Origin: a virus
Taxonomy: Duplodnaviria; Heunggongvirae; Uroviricota; Caudoviricetes
DNA length: 32,649 nt
Virus record (IMG/VR): IMGVR_UViG_2778261544_000010
Location: 1-32,649 of that record
Strand: one strand, 5' to 3'
The position numbers and the translations under genes were made by a program. Shown here piece after piece: positions 12,985 through 21,400 of this stretch (positions are counted from its first letter, which is position 1; the number at the start of each line of letters is the position of its first letter). Under the pieces are notes generated by a model. The model did not search any database. It was not told the origin of the DNA and saw only the letters and a list, made by a program, of their open reading frames with translations.

Positions 12985-13012
12985 AATCCCTACCCGAAAT
13001 AATACTTATTAG

Positions 13013-13040
13013 AAAAAAACCAGCCTTTGGGGAGGCTGGC
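13013..13040 (-). terminator. Intrinsic terminator just downstream of Q and the putative late promoter (tR'-like)
   Basis: Hairpin CCAGCCT-loop-AGGCTGG followed on the minus strand by TTTTTTT. On the plus strand it is preceded by an A-run, so it may also terminate blc. Confidence 0.55.
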
Positions 13041-13094
13041 TAAATCAGGAAACAAGCTGTTATATGATAATAACTACGTTGCGATTCCAACATT

Positions 13095-13130
13095 TAAAAT
13101 GTTAGACTAATGACAATCAGACAGCAACTT
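13095..13130 (-). promoter_or_regulatory. Putative late promoter pR' (Q target) between Q stop and terminator
   Basis: Minus-strand TTGCTG-17 nt-TAACAT about 60 nt upstream of the terminator hairpin. Position is analogous to lambda pR'/6S RNA. By-eye prediction only. Confidence 0.3.
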
Positions 13131-13139
13131 TTCCTTTAA

Positions 13140-13517
13140 TTATTTCGAACAATCAGCATCCATCTCCAATCGGAGATCCAACACCATCAGCATACCCTCC
13201 ACTACGCCCTCAGCTTTCTGGAGCATCCTGCCAACCCAACAATCAGATCGCCCATGCTTACGTGCAAGCGCCATAAAAGTCATGCCGCCGACATAATAGT
13301 CCACCAATAAATCATGCAAATCGCTGTTGTTCTTTTTCAGACGGGCCATGCACCCGCAAATGATCATCGCGTCATCGTCACAACATTGTGGGCGAGATTT
13401 TACTTTTGAAGGAATTAATCCCTTAAAACCGGCGGCAATGGACGACCAGGTCACATCTTCATGATTATTAGCCGCCCACGCTCCCCAACGCTCAAGAACC
13501 ATCTGAATATCACGCAT
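13140..13517 (-). CDS. Q: Late antiterminator Q (DLP12 QuuD-like)
   Basis: From ATG 13517, [33 protein letters not shown]...[16 protein letters not shown] closely matches remembered E. coli QuuD. Confidence 0.85.
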
Positions 13518-13602
13518 CAACTTACTCCACAAAAATCAGACCAGAACGCCAATTACAAACAAAAATCAACAAAACAGTATTAGTTGATTGTTATCTCTGA
13601 CT

Positions 13603-13725
13603 TCATACTCCTGCTCCTGTCAGGGTTTTGGCGTAATTCTTCAGTATTCGGTAATCGGTCAAAACAGAACCGGGGAAACGATATAATCGCAGACGCCTCC
13701 AGCGGTGGCGAAGAAGTTCTGCCAT
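13603..13725 (-). CDS. Small ORF (40 aa) between rusA and Q
   Basis: I translated it by hand: MAELLRHRWRRLRLYRFPGSVLTDYRILKNYAKTLTGAGV. Same slot as DLP12 ylcG, but I cannot verify identity. Weak RBS. Confidence 0.3.
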   Translation of the reverse strand: MAELLRHRWRRLRLYRFPGSVLTDYRILKNYAKTLTGAGV

Positions 13726-13739
13726 ATAAAACTCAAACA

Positions 13740-14102
13740 TCATTCATTCCCCATTTCGGTGATGCTCAGTTCCAGCCTCCCACCTTTGGTAACAGGCATC
13801 TTCACAACGCGGTAATCAACGACCTGAGCATCATCCAGCCAGAAACCTGCTTTGGTGAGTGCGTCAAAAGCGGCTTTTTGCAGATTATCCAGGTCACGGC
13901 GACGGCGATCCGGCATGTGGCACTCAATACGGATTTTCACTGGCATAGCCAGGCCGATATCCAGCATTGCGTTTTTAATGATTCGGGTGACGTTATCGCG
14001 GTATGCCTGCCCTTCTGCGCTGATGTGTGTGCGCCCGCGATTATGGCGGTAATAGCGGTTATTGCTCGGCGGCCAGGGTAGTGTGATGCAGTAAGTATTC
14101 AC
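13740..14102 (-). CDS. rusA: Holliday junction resolvase RusA
   Basis: 120 aa [26 protein letters not shown]... is near-identical to E. coli RusA. GTG start overlaps the ybcO stop. Confidence 0.95.
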
Positions 14103-14389
14103 GCCTTAATTACCCCCTCTTTCAGCCAGATAACCTGTGTTCTCGCCATACCTTCCAGCGCACATTCTTTTGCATATCCATCGTCAACAAAATGCGTGCG
14201 ACGGTCGATTTCGTCGTGGCAGGCAGAACATGCAATGGTGGCAATCAGGTCTGGCGGTTTGATACCGGTACCGCACAATCCAGCCAGCCGGATATGTGCC
14301 AGTACTGACGTTTCAGGATTGCCATTACATACGCCGGGGATTCTTACCTGGCATTCCCGACCACGCGCTGCTTTTCTCAAATCAGCCAT
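14099..14389 (-). CDS. ybcO: YbcO-like nuclease (DUF1364)
   Basis: From ATG 14389 (RBS AAGGAGG), [32 protein letters not shown]... matches DLP12 YbcO. Confidence 0.85.
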
Positions 14390-14552
14390 GATTCCTCCTT
14401 GCTGCCAGTCGCAACCATTTTTTATCAACCAGGCTGGCGGTATATCCGAGCAGTGTTGGTATTTCGGATGGTTTCAGCTCAGGCTTACGCTTACGACGAT
14501 TTGGTACTCTGTAGATGTGTCCGTTCATGACACGAATAAGCGGTGTAGCCAT
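14383..14552 (-). CDS. ninE: NinE-like protein (56 aa)
   Basis: Not in the ORF track (under 60 aa). I translated it by hand: [56 protein letters not shown]. Its ATG overlaps the ybcN stop (TAATG). Confidence 0.7.
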
Positions 14553-15007
14553 TACGCCTCCTGCTTGTCGCGCAGCAGCTGGAACTCGCAGCTCTGCGGA
14601 ATAGTCAGGTGGCAGCCAATATTCACCGCCCAGGCTTCAACCTTACACAGGAAGACATACATCTCTCCGGTATCAAGATCGGAGGTATGGCGTAACGACT
14701 GGATAGTGGTGATATCACCGGTTACGACATCAACCAGGTCCTTGGTTTCATAACCGAGGTATGTGTGTTTGAGAGCATCTTTTACCCAATCTGGAGTGGC
14801 AAACGTTTTACCCCTGCTGATGAGGTATTCACTGATTTCGCTGTACCACATGTGGCTGAGTGCATTCTGGGAAAGACTGCGTTTCTCACGCCACGGTTTA
14901 AGCACCATGCGAAAGCATTTGCCTTCCTCCAGATAAGGCTGGATCTGCTGGCCGATAGCGGTGAAGTTACCACGATGCAATTTGATGCCGTCTTGTGGGA
15001 GGTTCAC
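14552..15007 (-). CDS. ybcN: NinB/Orf-family recombination protein (DLP12 YbcN-like)
   Basis: 151 aa [55 protein letters not shown]... matches YbcN. GTG start with GGAGGTG RBS. Confidence 0.9.
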
Positions 15008-15036
15008 GCTTCACCTCCGCAGAGGTCAAACGCTGG

Positions 15037-15190
15037 ATGCAAAAAATCGCAGGTGCATCTCTGCATCTGTGAAGGGAGAAGAGAGTTTGGATTGTATGTG
15101 CGCATAAACGTCCCCGTTTAGCGCAGAAGTCACCGGAGTTGTTCAAGCTCCAATGGCATGATTATGGCTGGTTGATTATTGGAAATCAAA
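15037..15190. repeat. Direct repeat copy 1 (about 150 bp, roughly 85-88 percent identical to 16971-17124)
   Basis: Aligned by eye with the copy at 16971-17124; shared blocks include AAAAAATCG.AGGTGCAT.TCTGCATCTGTGAA and GGATTGTATGTGCGCATAAACGTCCCCGTTTAGCGCAGAAGTCACCGGAGTTGTTCA. Confidence 0.75.
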
Positions 15191-15201
15191 TGTGCTGAAA
15201 A

Positions 15202-15711
15202 TTAGTCTGCCAAGTCTTCCTCAGTCGCAACTGGGTAATTCCAAATATCAAAAAAAGCTATAGCCTCCTGCCATTTGCTCCATAAGTTATCAAGTACTTG
15301 TGTAGGTTCCGTACTTTTAAAAACAGAATCAGCCGCATCACCGTTATGAACTTCCTCGTACAGTTCCATTATTAGCAGATTAACAAAGTACTGTTTCAAC
15401 ATTAATGCCTGATTACCTTCTTTCTGCTGGCTATCCTGCTTGATGATCTCCATCGCCCGTACTAGGCACCTGATGATATCCGCTGCATCATTAACGCTCC
15501 ATTCAGATCCGCGCTTATCTTTAGCTGATGAATTGGCTCTCTCAGCGCAAGCCTTTAAAGACTCATAAAGGTAAACTCTATTTTGTAGCTGCAGCACTTT
15601 TTTTGACGTGTACCAACTTGCAAGCGCCGACCCCGCTGCGGCTAATGTGCCAAACGCAGAAATGCCTGCTGCTATTGCACTTAAGTCGGCACTGTCAAAG
15701 TTCCACATCAT
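15202..15711 (-). CDS. Hypothetical membrane-anchored protein (169 aa), nin-region cargo
   Basis: Tandem ATG start preceded by AAGGTG. N-terminal hydrophobic helix LSAIAAGISAFGTLAAAGSALASW then a soluble domain. AT-rich. No homolog recognised. Confidence 0.6.
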   Translation of the reverse strand: MMWNFDSADLSAIAAGISAFGTLAAAGSALASWYTSKKVLQLQNRVYLYESLKACAERANSSAKDKRGSEWSVNDAADIIRCLVRAMEIIKQDSQQKEGNQALMLKQYFVNLLIMELYEEVHNGDAADSVFKSTEPTQVLDNLWSKWQEAIAFFDIWNYPVATEEDLAD

Positions 15712-15886
15712 CGTTACACCTTATATAAACACCCCTCAGTAATATCCAATAAGGTATGTGAACAATCAATATAATTTATATCCGTATCGGCACATAGCGA
15801 TTTTAATGCTACTGATAATGGTATCTTTTAGATTATATCGTCCAGTTCCAGTACCCGTATTTTATGAAATGGACTCGCACATTACC

Positions 15887-15927
15887 AAAAAAAATGCCAG
15901 CACTTCCGTCATCGCAGAATGCTGGCA
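15887..15927 (-). terminator. Putative intrinsic terminator downstream of the Bro-N gene
   Basis: 8-bp stem TGCCAGCA/TGCTGGCA with a long loop, followed on the minus strand by a run of 8 T. Confidence 0.4.
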
Positions 15928-15946
15928 GTATTTCTAACTAGTGACT

Positions 15947-16555
15947 TTATTGCAACAGATTCTGACGGAAATATGGTAACACACGACTCCACTTATCATC
16001 CTGCCACGGTTGGAATTTTACATGCGCCGTTTCTCTGGCAAGGATTTCTCGCGCCCTGTTGAGTATCCGAGGATATTCTTGTTCGATTGAAGTGAATCTA
16101 CCTGCTTCGCGATGCTCCGCAACCTGAAGAAGAGGAGTAACGTTCTGGCAGGCGGTTAACATCGCATCCCCAGCTCGCCATAACCAAGCAAGTGTGCAAA
16201 GTTCGTTATCAGTGAATTGTTTTGTGATCGGGGATTGTTGAACTTCTCGATCGAGAATATCCAGAACCCAGCGGCGGAACTCTTTGGCTACAGGAGTTCG
16301 TGCAAACATGGCGATCAAATGGGCTCCGCGAAGGCTAAATACTCGAGACTCCTGCATTCCACGAGGGGTGGTCACTTTGACCACCCTTGTCATCATATCT
16401 GTAAATTCATCTGAGTGACGAGAGTAAATGCGCTGAACTGCTTTATCGTCCGCATATTCCAGAGCTAAACCAACTTCAGTGGCAGTAAGCCAAATTCTGT
16501 TATTGTGGCAAATTGGGGTAAACGTCGTTTTGTGGAATGCTAATTGAGTAGTCAT
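15947..16555 (-). CDS. Bro-N domain protein (phage antirepressor-like)
   Basis: N-terminal pattern FHKTTFTPICHNNRIWLTATEVGLALEY fits the Bro-N signature. RBS GAGGTG. Confidence 0.75.
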   Translation of the reverse strand: MTTQLAFHKTTFTPICHNNRIWLTATEVGLALEYADDKAVQRIYSRHSDEFTDMMTRVVKVTTPRGMQESRVFSLRGAHLIAMFARTPVAKEFRRWVLDILDREVQQSPITKQFTDNELCTLAWLWRAGDAMLTACQNVTPLLQVAEHREAGRFTSIEQEYPRILNRAREILARETAHVKFQPWQDDKWSRVLPYFRQNLLQ

Positions 16556-16818
16556 AGTTTCACCTCATCAGGTTAACCATCACCACCAACGACGCCAATC
16601 GACTGGTGGTGAACTGTGCAAGGTTGGCGTAACCGGCTACTCAAATCCGGCGCTCCCGAAGAAGCCCTCACACAGCCCACCATAATTTGGGCGTAGCCGT
16701 GCTTAGCGCATAAAAAAACCGCTTAACGCGGTATGCGTTGAGTAGTATTCCGGGACGCCAATCCCGTGTGCCGATTTTGCGGCAACGCACAGAATATATC
16801 CCCAGATAAATCATGTCG

Positions 16819-16908
16819 TCAACCCCAGTAAATGGACACCATGATGATCACAGCCATAGCTGCTACAACAGTTACAACTACCTCAGGCCAAAACATAACG
16901 ATTTCCAT
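16819..16908 (-). CDS. Putative 29-aa hydrophobic peptide (MEIVMFWPEVVVTVVAAMAVIIMVSIYWG)
   Basis: Internal ATG of the 82-aa ORF, preceded by AAAGGTGAT. Almost entirely hydrophobic. A weak hairpin plus T-run follows near 16712-16732. Speculative. Confidence 0.25.
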   Translation of the reverse strand: MEIVMFWPEVVVTVVAAMAVIIMVSIYWG

Positions 16909-16970
16909 ATCACCTTTAGCCGCCAGACGAATAGAGACTCCCAATTCTGGCTGTCGAAGTAAAACACCGA

Positions 16971-17124
16971 ATGTAAAAAATCGTAGGTGCATTTCTGCAT
17001 CTGTGAATGGAGAAGATAGGTTGGATTGTATGTGCGCATAAACGTCCCCGTTTAGCGCAGAAGTCACCGGAGTTGTTCAGGCTCCGGTGATACAATTATG
17101 GCGAATTGATTATTCATAATCAAA
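16971..17124. repeat. Direct repeat copy 2 (partner of 15037-15190)
   Basis: See copy 1. This copy contains a perfect 9-bp hairpin TCACCGGAG...CTCCGGTGA that is disrupted in copy 1. Confidence 0.75.
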
Positions 17125-17388
17125 CAAGATAAGGTCTCAAACTTCATGCAAGCCAAGATTTATTTCTGACAGAATTATACAAAGAAGCTATTGGTCAGAA
17201 TCTACTCGGACTGTAAAACATACGCATAATCTTAAACTCTCACTTTAAGCATTGTTGAAATAATAGCCGTCAAGTACAACCTTAACCACGACTGGGATAT
17301 TTCCCTGGCTACCACGAGTTGTACGGCTATTAAACTGCCGTTAAATTCAGTAAGAGAATATCATCCGATAAGTCAAGGCATGTAAAAC

Positions 17389-18432
17389 ATGAAAATTAAC
17401 AAGATATTATCATCTGCAACACTATTGTATGGTATGTCAATGGCCATGTCGGTCGGGAGTTGTGCAACACCTGTCCAGACTAATCTTCCTGGTTACACCC
17501 CGGGTGCAGATATCATTAGTGTTTCACCGACCAGAAACCAGGTCGATCTCATTGGTGATGTTGTTTATTCCCAGATAAAAGGAACTCGTTCTGTCAGACA
17601 GCTTCACATGTCAGTTCTTGTCCCGCGAACAAATGATTTAAAACCAGCCATTATTTATTATCCCGGCGGCGGATTCATGTCTTCTGAACATGACAAATTT
17701 ATTGAAATGAGAATGGCTCTGGCAGAAGCTGGTTTTGTTGTGGCCGCTGTAGAATACAGAACAATTCCTGATACATTTCCAGCACCAGTTGAGGATGGAA
17801 AAGCTGCAATACGTTACCTGAGAGAGCATGCCAGCAATTATGGGATTGATCCTCAAAGAATCGGAGTTCTGGGTGACTCTGCCGGTGGATGGCTTGCTCA
17901 GATGATGGGAACTACAAATGGTGACAAAACCTTTGATAAAGGTGACTTTCTTCAGCAATCCTCAGATGTTCAGGCAGTTGCCACACTTTATGGGATTTCT
18001 GACTTGTTGAATATTGGCGAAGGGTTCCCTGAATCAGTGCAGGAGGTTCATCGCTCTCCTGCCGTAACCGAAGCCTTAATGATCAATGGCCCTGCATTCA
18101 GAGATTTTGCGGGAGCCCCCATCACAGCGTCAAAAGAAAAAGCGCTAAACGCCAGTCCAATCGGACATATGAAAGGAGTAAAACCCCCATTTCTTATTAT
18201 GCATGGTAGCAAAGACACTCTGGTTTCACCTGAGCAAAGCGCCAAACTATTCAGGATGTTGAAGAAGAACGGCGATAACGCTGAGTACGTGCTAGTAGAA
18301 GGGGCTGAGCATGGCGATGATACATGGTATCAGCCAATTATTATAAACAGAGTCGTTGAGTGGTTTACTAAAAACCTGGGAGCCCCCATAAAAACCACTA
18401 ACCAACAACAGAACCCAAACGCTAACCTGTAA
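17389..18432 (+). CDS. Secreted alpha/beta-hydrolase (esterase/lipase family)
   Basis: Signal peptide MKINKILSSATLLYGMSMAMSVGSC, oxyanion-hole motif YYPGGGF, nucleophile motif GDSAGGW, C-terminal HG. Confidence 0.8.
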   Translation: MKINKILSSATLLYGMSMAMSVGSCATPVQTNLPGYTPGADIISVSPTRNQVDLIGDVVYSQIKGTRSVRQLHMSVLVPRTNDLKPAIIYYPGGGFMSSEHDKFIEMRMALAEAGFVVAAVEYRTIPDTFPAPVEDGKAAIRYLREHASNYGIDPQRIGVLGDSAGGWLAQMMGTTNGDKTFDKGDFLQQSSDVQAVATLYGISDLLNIGEGFPESVQEVHRSPAVTEALMINGPAFRDFAGAPITASKEKALNASPIGHMKGVKPPFLIMHGSKDTLVSPEQSAKLFRMLKKNGDNAEYVLVEGAEHGDDTWYQPIIINRVVEWFTKNLGAPIKTTNQQQNPNANL

Positions 18433-18470
18433 AAAGAGGGAGGGCTTAGCCCTCCCTATTCTGTTTTGTT
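18431..18470. terminator. Bidirectional intrinsic terminator between the convergent esterase and adhesin genes
   Basis: AAAAA-AGGGAGGG-CTTAG-CCCTCCCT-ATTCTGTTTTGTT: GC-rich 8-bp stem with T-rich flanks on both strands. Confidence 0.6.
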
Positions 18471-21400
18471 AACTGTCCTTTTCAGGAAGTTTTACAACAA
18501 AAGTTGTTAATTCTTTCTCATACGTTTTTTTACTATTTGTTATTTTGGCCTTAATCCAGTGATAACCGCTTTCATAGGTGCTGAACTCCGAGGCAGCGTT
18601 ACCTGTCGAGCTTAACGTTACTGTAGCAGGTTCCATTTTGACGCGTTGAGAGGTTGGGCTATCTTCACTACCAGCAGAAAACTCAACCGTACCAGACAAT
18701 GGGTTTCCAAAATGATCGACAAATCGAGCATAAATACCTGTTGGAGAGCCGTCATTAACCTCATAACCATAGTCTTTTTCAAGACTCAGAACCCCATTTG
18801 CTTCATCAGCGTACAGGGAGAATGATTTCACCGCGCTAACATCACTACCAAGTTCGTTTAAGGTCGCCGTTAATTTATACGAACCAGCCGTTCGACCATG
18901 TACGCTTACCGTAGCCTGGCCGCGCTCATCAGTCGTTACTGTGGTTTTATCAACCACCAACGCACCATATTTGGACGGTCCAGAGGTCTTAATATTCAGT
19001 GCTCGACCACTTAATGCTTCGCCTGACGTATTTTTCAGATGCAACGTAAATGTAAGATTGTTGGAATCGCTCACAACAGCAGAAGATACAGATGATGTGA
19101 TATCCAACACAGCATCCTTCACATCCGTCATGGCATCAATATTTTGGCTTGCAGTTATGCGTTTCCCATCCTGAACATGCTCGGCCTGAATTGTGTACTG
19201 GCCCGATTTCGATGCAGTGAACTGCGTTGATGCCTTTCCATAAGCATCCAGCTGCAGTTTACTGCTGGTCAATGATGCTCCCGTCGATGGGGTGATCGTT
19301 AAATTTACATCACCGGTAAATGCATTGTTATTGGCATCAACCAACTGAATGTCTACTGTTGCACTTTCACTGCTATCGGCCACAATCTGCTGTTTTGATA
19401 CACTCATAGTGAGTTCTGCGGAAGCAATATCTGGCACAAAAGTTAACTTAACGCTGCCAGATTCCACACTATTAGAACCATCAGTCACCCGTGCAGTTAC
19501 CGTGTACTCACCAGCTTTCACCGTTGTAACTGGTACAGAAACATGCCCTGTTGAATCAGTCACGATATTTGTCGGCACAGACAACCCTTCAGATGAGGTA
19601 ATGAGCTGAACCTTCTGTCCATTAACCGACGCATTAGTATTATTTGTTAGCTGAACATTCAATACCGCAGCATCTTTACCATTAGCAGGGATATTCGAAA
19701 TTAAGCTACTGTTTTCAGGCGTCAGTGACAGTGAAGCTCCGCTCATATTTGATGCAAAGGTCACAGTTAACTCAGTAGATACCTGAGGCCCAGCATGAGC
19801 TTTAATCACGTAAGAACCTGGAGTGGAGCTTATTAACGCAAAAACAGCATTACCATTTTCGTCAGTTGACACTGCATGTTCACCACCAACTTGAGTTATC
19901 CCCGCAGGTAAGGACAACGTAACAGCATAACCAGGAACAACATTGCCGAAACGATCAGCAAGACTTACAGTCACTGTATTCTGTTGTTTTCCATCAGCCA
20001 ATGCATTATTTTTACTGGCTTCAATACGAGAGAACGCGAACTGAATTCGGTCTTCCATAAAGGAGATTTCTTTCTCAAGGTCGGAGAAATCGTGACGATC
20101 CGATTTAACACCGATCCGAATCTTATCTGCTCGTTTTGAAGTTACTGTTGCGCTATAGACACCATCTTTTTCCGTTACAGTCCCAAACTCGACTCCTTCA
20201 GCCTGGTTAATGGCATAAAAGCTCAGAGTATTATCACCTGTGATTGCATTTCCTTGTGAATCCTTCACTGCCAGTTGTAGATTAATATTGTAACCAACTA
20301 CCTGCTCTGCTGGTGCAGCGGTTAAAACAGCACTGACCTCAGATTCAGGTTCTGTTGCTGCTGTTTGCTTAATACTGAGAGTAAAGGTTTTTCCCTGAAC
20401 TTTTGCAGTTACACGTACCGTACCAGCCTGCGAACCAGCAGTCAGAACAGAGCGATATACCCCAGCAGAGATTTCCTCTACCGCGCCTAATGACGGGGCA
20501 GTTACCGTTTCACGCTGTCGAGCACTATTGCTATCTGCTGTAAATTCCACTGACATTTCAATGTCATCAGCCAGTCCGGTTAATGCCTTACCGTTACTGT
20601 CTTTCAGGCTTAATACTATCGGATAAGTAGATTGGCTATCAGCAGAGATCGTCGGCGACGAATCTCCATCCAGTGTAAAAGACGAATCAGCTGTCGATAC
20701 ATCACTATCAGTGATGGCTGCCTGCTTAATATTCAGAGTAAAGGTTTTTCCCTGAACTTTTGCGGTTACACGTACCGTACCAGCCTGCGAACCAGCAGTC
20801 AGAACAGAGCGATATACCCCAGCAGAGATTTCCTCTACCGCGCCTAATGACGGGGCAGTTACCGTTTCACGCTGTCGAGCACTATTGCTATCTGCTGTAA
20901 ATTCCACTGACATTTCAATGTCATCAGCCAGTCCGGTTAATGCCTTACCGTTACTGTCTTTCAGGCTTAATACTATCGGATAAGTAGATTGGCTATCAGC
21001 AGAGATCGTCGGCGACGAATCTCCATCCAGTGTAAAAGACGAATCAGCTGTCGATACACCACTATCAGTAACGCTAATATTCATCACGGCATAGTTGGAC
21101 ACGTTGCCTCTGTTATCCTGTACTGTGGCTCCAACACTCCACGAATTTACACCTTCGCTTTTATAAGCCGGTAAAGTGATCTGCCATGATGTGCCATTTC
21201 CACTGATCTTGCCGCCAGCCGCAGTGAATGCACTATCATTCCACTGTACAGACTTGATACCACCACTGGCATTGTTGACTGTCAGTGTTACAGGGATGAT
21301 TGATTCCCCCTCCCCCTGAATAGACTCTGGCAAACTGATTTTCAGTGCATGCTTTTTCTTGTACTCCAGAACAATGTTGTTATTTCGTTCAACAAAATCA

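Follow-up and report, generated by a model that had tools for sequence, protein, structure and literature searches.

A predicted structured RNA leader, present twice around an antirepressor cassette at the entry to the nin/Q block of a lambdoid prophage

The window, that is, the whole stretch of DNA analysed here (32,649 nucleotides, positions 1 to 32,649 of the IMG/VR virus record IMGVR_UViG_2778261544_000010, Caudoviricetes), is a complete-looking lambdoid prophage, in which a sequence of 169 nucleotides (nt) is present twice in the same orientation around a cassette that carries an antirepressor gene. The early rightward transcription of this prophage corresponds to the minus strand, and every gene of the repeat and cassette region lies on that strand, as do all the features with coordinates given below unless the plus strand is named. 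Read from high to low coordinates, starting from the integrase end, the order is integrase, a DndB-like gene, YqaJ/RecT, a CI-like repressor, a YdaT-like protein, O and P; beyond P there are an inverse autotransporter of 1303 amino acids (aa), a BD-FAE esterase on the opposite strand, copy 2 of the repeat, the cassette and copy 1; and beyond copy 1 there are ybcN, ninE, ybcO, rusA, ylcG and Q, followed by the lysis and head genes. The repeats sit at the entry to the nin/Q block, of which the first gene is ybcN (14552-15007; NinB/Orf family, from the open reading frame (ORF), Pfam and PHROG; PMC4118853). The repeat is a copy of a widespread conserved leader, which normally heads the recombination/Q (nin/Q) operon of lambda-like phages.

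A direct-repeat search of 13000-19500 gave the two copies at 15022-15190 and 16956-17124, with 86% identity (24 differences over the 169 nt), no gap and a spacing of 1934. Since the next-best repeat families in the same region are only 31 nt long at 71% identity, the repeat is not due to chance. A perfectly identical core of 59 nt is common to both copies (15087-15145 and 17021-17079). Copy 1 is the resident leader before ybcN and is identical to the leader of phage PhiR26_1, while copy 2 lies at the 5' end of the cassette and is without the tail containing the ribosome-binding site and the start overlap, its homology to copy 1 stopping about 14 nt past the U-run described below. It is noted that a preliminary description of this DNA had already given the repeat as 15037-15190 and 16971-17124; the repeat is real and these coordinates are right, with the homology reaching 15 nt further at the low end, and the names it gave to the ybcN-like gene (14552-15007), the Bro-N protein (15947-16555) and the 169-aa protein (15202-15711) are also right.

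In the direction of transcription, the conserved part of the repeat begins with a promoter-like site. The promoter scan gave TTGATT-17-CATAAT at 15161-15189 in copy 1, including a perfect palindrome TTGATT-N6-AATCAA, and TTGATT-17-CATAAT at 17095-17123 in copy 2. Among 109 distinct relatives, which are the basis of the counts of this form given below, the information content is about 0 as far as the -35 hexamer and leaps precisely there to about 2 bits, and TTGAnn-N16-18-YAWAAT is retained in 98 of them, so that the predicted site has the -35 and -10 hexamers, the spacing of 16-18 nt and the conservation in relatives expected of a sigma-70 promoter. Where the promoter sequence has been replaced by recombination, in the relatives L042 and L136, a promoter-like TTGAAA-17-CAATAT occupies the same place.

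Downstream of this site each copy is predicted to specify a structured RNA of about 120 nt, at 15036-15158 in copy 1 (91 bits with the covariance model R1; fold z-score -3.1) and at 16970-17092 in copy 2 (89 bits; fold z-score -5.1). The RNA of copy 1 is laid out as hairpin 1 with the loop CUUGAACAA, hairpin 2 with the loop GGGA, a C/A-rich linker, and hairpin 3 with the loop GAGA followed by U6. Hairpin 3 of copy 1 passes the terminator scan (15048-15065, U6), whereas that of copy 2 is weakened by a C-A mismatch at its base. In the relatives, hairpin 1 retains the loop YCUGAACAM while its stems differ in phi80 and HK225 (UCUGCCAG/CUGGCAGA) and in ENT1 (CCGCCGG/CCGGCGG); hairpin 2 has a 10-bp stem with a GGGA-type loop and occurs in four different stem versions; and hairpin 3 has the form CAGAUGCA-GAAA-UGCACCUG, then CGAUUUU(C/U)U, with a compensatory CCG/CGG change in L035 and a different loop in four relatives. 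The linker between hairpins 2 and 3 occurs in at least five versions while the hairpins stay conserved.

Because a plain MAFFT alignment of 95 relatives (A3) misaligns hairpin 2, the model R1 was built from ten relatives and its alignment (A5) was used for the pair counts. A search of the window with R1 gave exactly two matches, which are the two copies of the repeat. In the R1 alignment of 104 matches (91 distinct), 97.8% of the cells are paired. Changes on both sides occur at 17 of the 27 pairs, compared with 5.9 +/- 1.3 in shuffled controls (0/500) and 2-8 in slid controls; this alignment was fitted to the structure and favours it, which has to be counted against the interpretation proposed below, yet the contrast with the slid controls is large. 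From this comparison the repeat is predicted to contain a conserved structured RNA, whose base pairs are retained via compensatory changes beyond the controls.

The element is found in 2885 of 5426 complete E. coli genomes, that is, in over half of them, with one place per genome as the median and four as the maximum, and it is present also in Enterobacter, Citrobacter, Klebsiella and Lelliottia prophages. It occurs in 29 phage records, including those of 82, phi80, HK225, HK639, 4A7 and Enterobacter and Klebsiella phages, in 17 species-representative genomes, nearly all of Enterobacteriaceae (Lelliottia, Huaxiibacter, Enterobacter, Citrobacter, Pseudescherichia), and in more than 119 IMG/VR contigs. 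One match lies on a 1115-nt contig (L010) labelled Kocuria sabuli, from an actinobacterial assembly, and this contig is probably contamination. Elsewhere the leaders are mosaics of sequence types, as in L039/L044, L042 and L113. The gene next after the element is of the NinB/Orf family in 132 of 146 occurrences (98 YbcN-type and 34 NinB-type, both in the Orf superfamily); among the others, 4 elements stand before an isrK-antirepressor cassette, 2 before something else, and 8 are cut off.

In the phage 82 record X92588, the orf33 region is 90.5% identical to copy 1 and lies upstream of orf151 (= ybcN), and the record annotates a putative -35 TTGATT and a putative -10 CATAAT, with the same hexamers as in copy 1, an inverted repeat ('possible regulator-binding site') and orf33. 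The DLP12 prophage of K-12 carries the element as the 33-codon ylcH, between ybcM and ybcN, with an R1 score of 99.5 bits, and ylcH RNA is detectable in K-12 with a twofold change (PMC8910356). A whole-word literature search for ylcH gave incidental mentions only, and literal sequence strings of the element had no match in the paper texts searched, of which the coverage is incomplete. With Rfam, at E<=10 over 14900-17300, nothing was found on either copy of the repeat, the matches being isrK, C4 and chance matches only.

In HK639 the nin leader (L148 14273-14393) has its own promoter-like site and lies just after an annotated terminator of the right operon. HK639 is annotated with a putL-like antiterminator RNA and no putR, and it might be that the leader promoter contributes to Q expression in this phage. 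No similarity of the leader to the HK022/HK639 put antiterminator RNA was found: the model R1 gives no match to the annotated putL-like RNA of HK639 (L148 6188-6313), the nin leader of the same phage scoring 157.8 bits.

The leader also contains an upstream ORF of 33 codons at 15004-15105, taken from the ORF list, which is the same frame as annotated in X92588 and K-12 (orf33/YlcH). It begins with an AUG that is part of the 3' arm of hairpin 2 and ends with a TGA that shares bases with the GTG at which ybcN starts. This frame is open with a start codon in 109/109 relatives (29-40 codons), and in about 103 of these it ends in a TGA overlapping the start codon (ATG or GTG) of the gene that follows. 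The start codon is maintained at the same place across all four versions of hairpin 2, being AUG three times and GUG once, and the GGGA loop of hairpin 2 lies 5-6 nt upstream of it and is Shine-Dalgarno-like. The frame has three unrelated 3' ends (24, 24 and 27 nt), and L011 carries an in-frame 6-nt deletion. A codon-position test over all three frames gave no periodicity, which implies that no frame acts like a conserved protein. It would thus appear from these comparisons that the act and the placement of orf33 translation are conserved, and the peptide sequence is not. In copy 2 the orf33 frame has 53 codons and lacks a partner for coupling; in L107 a TAG interrupts it.

We now consider the cassette between the two copies, which runs from 17124 down to 15191 and of which the head is conserved and the tail exchangeable. 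In 112 E. coli genomes at least 80% of 14500-17400 is present. Both flanks of the window at this locus (the esterase and ybcN) match 4A7, Lambda_4C10, D2, 1W, 3W, Perceval and PhiR47_2, with 97.7% identity over 17400-16971 and 94.4% over 15190-14500, and all these phages have a single leader and no cassette. The single leader of 4A7 carries the copy-2 allele at 13/13 diagnostic positions over its positions 8-45 and the copy-1 allele at 10/11 over positions 105-167, with the switch falling in the 59-nt identical core. By its alleles, the 4A7 leader is the copy-2/copy-1 hybrid that would be expected from homologous recombination between the copies, or else the substrate of the reverse event. In PhiR26_1 the cassette is 98.3% identical and has another left neighbour (PD-lambda-1), with the junction at 17059 inside hairpin 2, and among the phages the left breakpoints inside the repeat vary (17059, 17087, 17098, 17113 and 17124). 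In L042, L107 and L006 the head is 91-95% identical while the tail is different DNA of 840-1230 bp. These data bear out the suggestion in the preliminary description of a mosaic junction or a cassette exchanged between the repeats: the single-copy relatives sought among lambdoid phages do lack the cassette, one of them has the hybrid leader, and the same head is found with different tails and breakpoints. Phages and prophages are known to recombine by relaxed homologous recombination (PMC3945230), and the repeats with their cassette are ordinary lambdoid mosaicism at a shared boundary sequence.

Taking these observations together, we consider it probable that the repeat is a promoter, a three-hairpin RNA and an upstream ORF heading the nin/Q block, and that the cassette is swapped by recombination between leader copies. 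The repeat would then be a self-contained regulatory unit, which lambdoid phages maintain at the head of the nin/Q block, and the following sequence of events can be proposed. The transcripts that begin at the leader, or that arrive unmodified from PR, would mostly end at hairpin 3. When hairpin 2 opens, orf33 would be translated and the ribosome would keep hairpin 3 from forming. The ribosome of orf33 would then be handed to the start of ybcN or ninB, so that the read-through of the operon and its translation would be switched on together. A leader that is non-permissive for transcription in the lysogen is consistent with the finding that rusA in DLP12 requires an inserted promoter for adequate expression (PMC4118853). 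In this locus, copy 1 would be the resident leader and copy 2 would head an inserted module; copy 2, which keeps the promoter and the hairpins only, would act as the promoter and 5' leader of the cassette, having been brought with the cassette or captured by it. The module would be gained and lost via homologous recombination between leader copies, since many phages share the leader and long blocks of it are invariant.

Several points weigh against this proposal. The function of the leader, whether ribosome-coupled attenuation or a small RNA (sRNA), is one that we infer from conservation. For the translation of orf33, only its openness and placement argue: the frame has no third-position excess (segregating sites by codon position 20/22/20 and 23/25/19), it failed the test for purifying selection (synonymous to non-synonymous changes of 31:71 and 24:73, not better than in the other frames), and a composition rich in C/A and poor in stops might by chance leave it open in a few lineages. 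Many relatives have a poor U-run after hairpin 3 (AAUUCUUU in K-12, GAUGUCUU) and L011 has lost it by deletion, from which it follows that termination is not essential everywhere, and hairpin 3 has a longer alternative fold with the U-run pairing with GAAA. Transcription is predicted to start a few bases into hairpin 1, implying that the outer pairs of this hairpin would be formed only where a transcript reads through from upstream. Finally, the hybrid leader of 4A7 is compatible with insertion and deletion alike.

Among the other explanations, the one that survives best is that the repeat is the gene for a trans-acting sRNA of about 120 nt, directed at host or phage mRNAs, with a promoter, two hairpins on the 5' side, a variable single-stranded C/A-rich seed and a terminator hairpin with its U-run, the upstream ORF being incidental. 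The unit duplicated in copy 2 spans from the -35 to just beyond the U-run, as a transcription unit would; the conserved hairpins with a variable linker are like those of prophage sRNA families with variable seeds (PMC4104026); and the ylcH RNA of K-12 is detected. On the other hand, even at E<=10 the repeats match no Rfam family, no target is identified, the U-run is weak or missing in many members, and the tight conserved overlap of the stop with the start of the next gene is left unexplained. Nor is the element any of the prophage sRNAs considered: the AgvB/AsxR anti-sRNAs, considered for the C/A-rich linker, lie 3' of PR' and are 51-60 nt long, and the Pas sRNAs are excluded by map position, lying near the lysis/Q genes. 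We regard this sRNA reading as unlikely, but it is still a serious alternative, and such a free-standing RNA would be compatible with the leader reading proposed above.

It may also be argued that the inverted repeats are DNA sites for a regulator, so that the repeat is only an operator and promoter with no function at the level of RNA. This would agree with the annotation 'possible regulator-binding site' in X92588 and with the palindrome TTGATW-N6-WATCAA, which covers the -35 in 86 of the 109 relatives and of which phi80 (L143 2625-2642) alters both halves symmetrically to TTGATA...TATCAA. However, the arms of hairpins 1 and 2 change compensatorily while the loops stay constant, which is the pattern of RNA stems and not of half-sites contacted by a protein, and G-U pairs are tolerated (at pair 6-30, U-G in 66 sequences and C-G in 25), so that we consider this explanation improbable. 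The palindrome itself may, by its symmetry, be an operator for some regulator, which is compatible with the leader reading. The reading of TTGATT-N6-AATCAA as an FNR-, CRP- or Fur-type site was set aside, its spacing differing from that of FNR sites (N4), and no regulator is proposed.

Still less probable, in our view, is the explanation hinted at in the preliminary description, that the repeat encodes the N-terminus of a selected small protein, of 35 aa in copy 1 and 82 aa in copy 2. Both of the ORFs that it named do exist on the minus strand (15026-15133 and 16819-17067), and a 57-aa version is called as a gene in some phages (PHROG 4612). The start codon of this frame is nevertheless present in just 37 of the 109 relatives; it is a GTG in the 3' arm of the conserved hairpin 1 with no Shine-Dalgarno sequence, and in other sequence types 1-nt indels shift the conserved block to another frame while the nucleotide blocks persist. 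The ORF of 82 codons is moreover broken by frameshifting indels in the relatives L046 and L107, whereas the 29 codons at its end remain undamaged and have a ribosome-binding site of their own, and PHROG 4612 matches it over residues 26-82 only. As to the synonymous changes from which selection had been suggested, in the 31 codons shared by the two copies 4 of the 5 differences are indeed synonymous, but over the whole stretch that they share there are 4 synonymous and 6 non-synonymous codons, and the changes are too few to carry weight and are contradicted by the wider comparison, in which no codon-position periodicity is seen. We therefore judge the 35-codon ORF not to be a gene and the 82-codon ORF to be a chance fusion of leader sequence to a 29-aa ORF, and the calls of 35, 53, 57 and 82 codons in many phage records are probably artefacts. 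From the sequence comparisons, the promoter, the three covarying hairpins and an upstream ORF with a regulatory role, read in another frame, seem to explain the conservation better.

The least probable explanation makes the cassette a mobile element, with the repeats as attachment sites or as the duplication of its target site. Direct repeats do enclose a discrete block that some relatives have and others lack, but no recombinase, transposase or integrase gene was found in the cassette (15191-16955; ORFs, Pfam, PHROG), the repeats are not short identical terminal repeats but 169 nt at just 86% identity, the sequence is single-copy in thousands of genomes, and the left breakpoints differ among the phages, so that a transposable or site-specific cassette was rejected.

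The features of the cassette are as follows, in the order of transcription. Behind copy 2 there is a candidate small, strongly hydrophobic protein of 29 aa (MEIVMFWPEVVVTVVAAMAVIIMVSIYWG, 16819-16908), preceded by AAAGGTGAT and open in seven cassette relatives, where an indel of 6 nt leaves its frame unchanged, whereas frameshifts have occurred further upstream in the 82-codon ORF. It lies just upstream of the isrK promoter-like site (TTGACG-18-TATATT, 16793-16822, from the promoter scan), with its stop codon inside the -35 hexamer. It could be a small membrane protein or a toxin-like peptide beside the two regulatory RNAs that follow, which had escaped the preliminary description. The first of these is an isrK-type RNA at 16712-16784 with its own terminator (16718-16732), matching positions 1-77/77 of the isrK Hfq-binding RNA family (RF01394) with 60.7 bits against a gathering threshold of 50; over it an a1/b1 C4-target match falls below the threshold (RF03163, 37.8 bits against 46.7). 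The second, at 16602-16687, is a C4/CI-type antisense RNA, the counterpart of STnc1160 of Gifsy-1, matching positions 1-87/87 of RF01695 with 72.4 bits against a gathering threshold of 45. By these Rfam thresholds the two RNAs belong to their families. The ORF list further gives a 36-codon ORF (16573-16683) that ends 15 nt before the start of the antirepressor gene, and by its position we take it to be the likely counterpart of orf45 of Gifsy-1 and icd of P1.

The antirepressor itself (15947-16555) has 202 aa, with a Bro-N domain and a P22AR C-terminal domain above the Pfam cut-offs (PF02498, 40.4 against 25.6; PF10548, 62.4 against 22.4), and matches the PHROG anti-repressor Ant families at 1e-55; PADLOC gave no match for it. 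It is followed by a strong intrinsic terminator with a 13-bp stem and U8 (15887-15927, terminator scan), a region that corresponds to the position of isrJ in Gifsy-1 and where no Rfam IsrJ match was found. Immediately after the terminator, the promoter scan gave the promoter-like site (15859-15888) of the exchangeable tail gene (15202-15711), which encodes a 169-aa protein of phrog_1779 with a hydrophobic N-terminal segment and with no match in Pfam or PADLOC. The terminator followed by the promoter-like site makes the cassette two transcription units. As predicted from these features, the cassette between the copies is a swappable antirepressor module under small-RNA control.

Across phages, the interval from ren to the leader is a hot spot for cargo. 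In PhiR26_1 (L003 6869-8371) it holds the PD-lambda-1 defence, in 4A7 (L002 6349-8463) a recombinase, a QacE/EmrE-like pump and an esterase (compare emrE-ybcK of DLP12), and in the window an adhesin and an esterase. The former is the inverse autotransporter of 1303 aa (18469-22380; IAT_beta and many Big_1/invasin domains), a phage cargo between P and the nin region, in which a segment of about 110 aa is present as two identical copies (SDVSTADSSFTLDGDSS...KVQGKTFTL). The latter is the BD-FAE / alpha-beta hydrolase esterase, with a lipoprotein-like signal sequence (17389-18432, plus strand, opposite to the phage early genes); the esterase gene also abuts the leader in phages 4A7, D2, 1W, 3W and Perceval, and PADLOC gave no match for it. 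Note also that a DndB-like (DNA-sulfur-modification-associated) protein lies near the integrase end (29525-30589, plus strand) and that a YdaT_toxin-domain protein (24344-24883) occupies the cII position, upstream of the replication gene O.

The isrK and C4 RNAs, the Bro-N/P22AR antirepressor and orf33/ylcH belong to known families, while the boundary sequence as a promoter-bounded, strongly covarying structured RNA, for which there is no Rfam family, appears not to have been described before. As a further step, which we put forward tentatively and which may well prove wrong, the repeat would be an undescribed, widespread phage RNA family that gates the nin-Q operon, through a masked upstream ORF coupled to terminator read-through, and that at the same time serves as a recombination handle for cargo. 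If this were true, the gating leader could explain the silence of rusA and Q in DLP12 and the expression of Q in N-less phages such as HK639. The leader stands immediately upstream of the genes leading to Q, by which late gene expression and lysis are switched, and a control element before Q bears on the silencing and induction of prophages and on the expression of ybcN/ninB and rusA. Where it is annotated, it appears as a hypothetical gene of 33 codons (ylcH/orf33), while the comparative data indicate a structured RNA, and the leader reading corrects gene calls across many phage records. The cassette, in turn, shows at base-pair resolution how lambdoid phages exchange regulatory cargo, the shared leader being the crossover site.

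Finally, we compare the locus with known systems. The closest are orf33 of phage 82 and ylcH of DLP12, which are the same element at the same position, with the same -35/-10 and inverted repeat and a 33-codon ORF overlapping the start of ybcN; there the element is in a single copy and is annotated as a protein gene with a possible regulator site, whereas in the window it is duplicated around a cassette. In lambda, the intrinsic terminator tR2 lies between ren and ninB, so that, like the leader, it is directly upstream of a ninB-family gene, and hairpin 3 with its U-run is terminator-like. However, lambda does not have the element, the best R1 score in its nin region being 4.8 bits, and unlike the leader it has at tR2 no promoter, no hairpins 1 and 2 and no upstream ORF; since no similarity to tR2 was found in sequence or structure, homology of the leader with tR2 was rejected.

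In pyrBI-type leader-peptide attenuators the translating ribosome blocks the terminator. The likeness of the leader to this type, which is one of analogy only, consists in a promoter, a short ORF running through a terminator-like hairpin, and an operon directly downstream. The leader differs from it in being without known signal-sensing codons, in having its start codon sequestered in a hairpin, and in the overlap of stop and start, which adds translational coupling.

The head of the cassette resembles isrK-orf45-anrP of Gifsy-1, with isrK, a C4/CI-like RNA, a short ORF before the antirepressor, and a terminator; the likeness is in the gene order and in the short ORF 15 nt before ant. In Gifsy-1, the short IsrK activates the translation of the read-through mRNA via coupling with orf45, switching on anrP (PMC4825925, Hershko-Shalev et al. 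2016). That locus lies downstream of the Q-like antQ, whereas the cassette of the window lies upstream of ybcN...Q, behind a duplicated leader and the 29-aa ORF. With immI of P1/P7 (c4, icd, ant) and CI/seqA of P4, the cassette shares a C4-clan antisense RNA upstream of an antirepressor, a1/b1-like target hairpins and a repeat of GAUUGGCGUC before the start of ant, although the a1/b1 match is the one below the Rfam threshold given above; the layout of the head is related to immI of P1. As in lambdoid morons and at mosaic boundaries, the cassette is an autonomous block of promoter, genes and terminator that is exchanged at short shared sequences; unlike in these, the boundary sequence in the window would, from its conserved features, itself be a functional regulatory unit, present twice in tandem.

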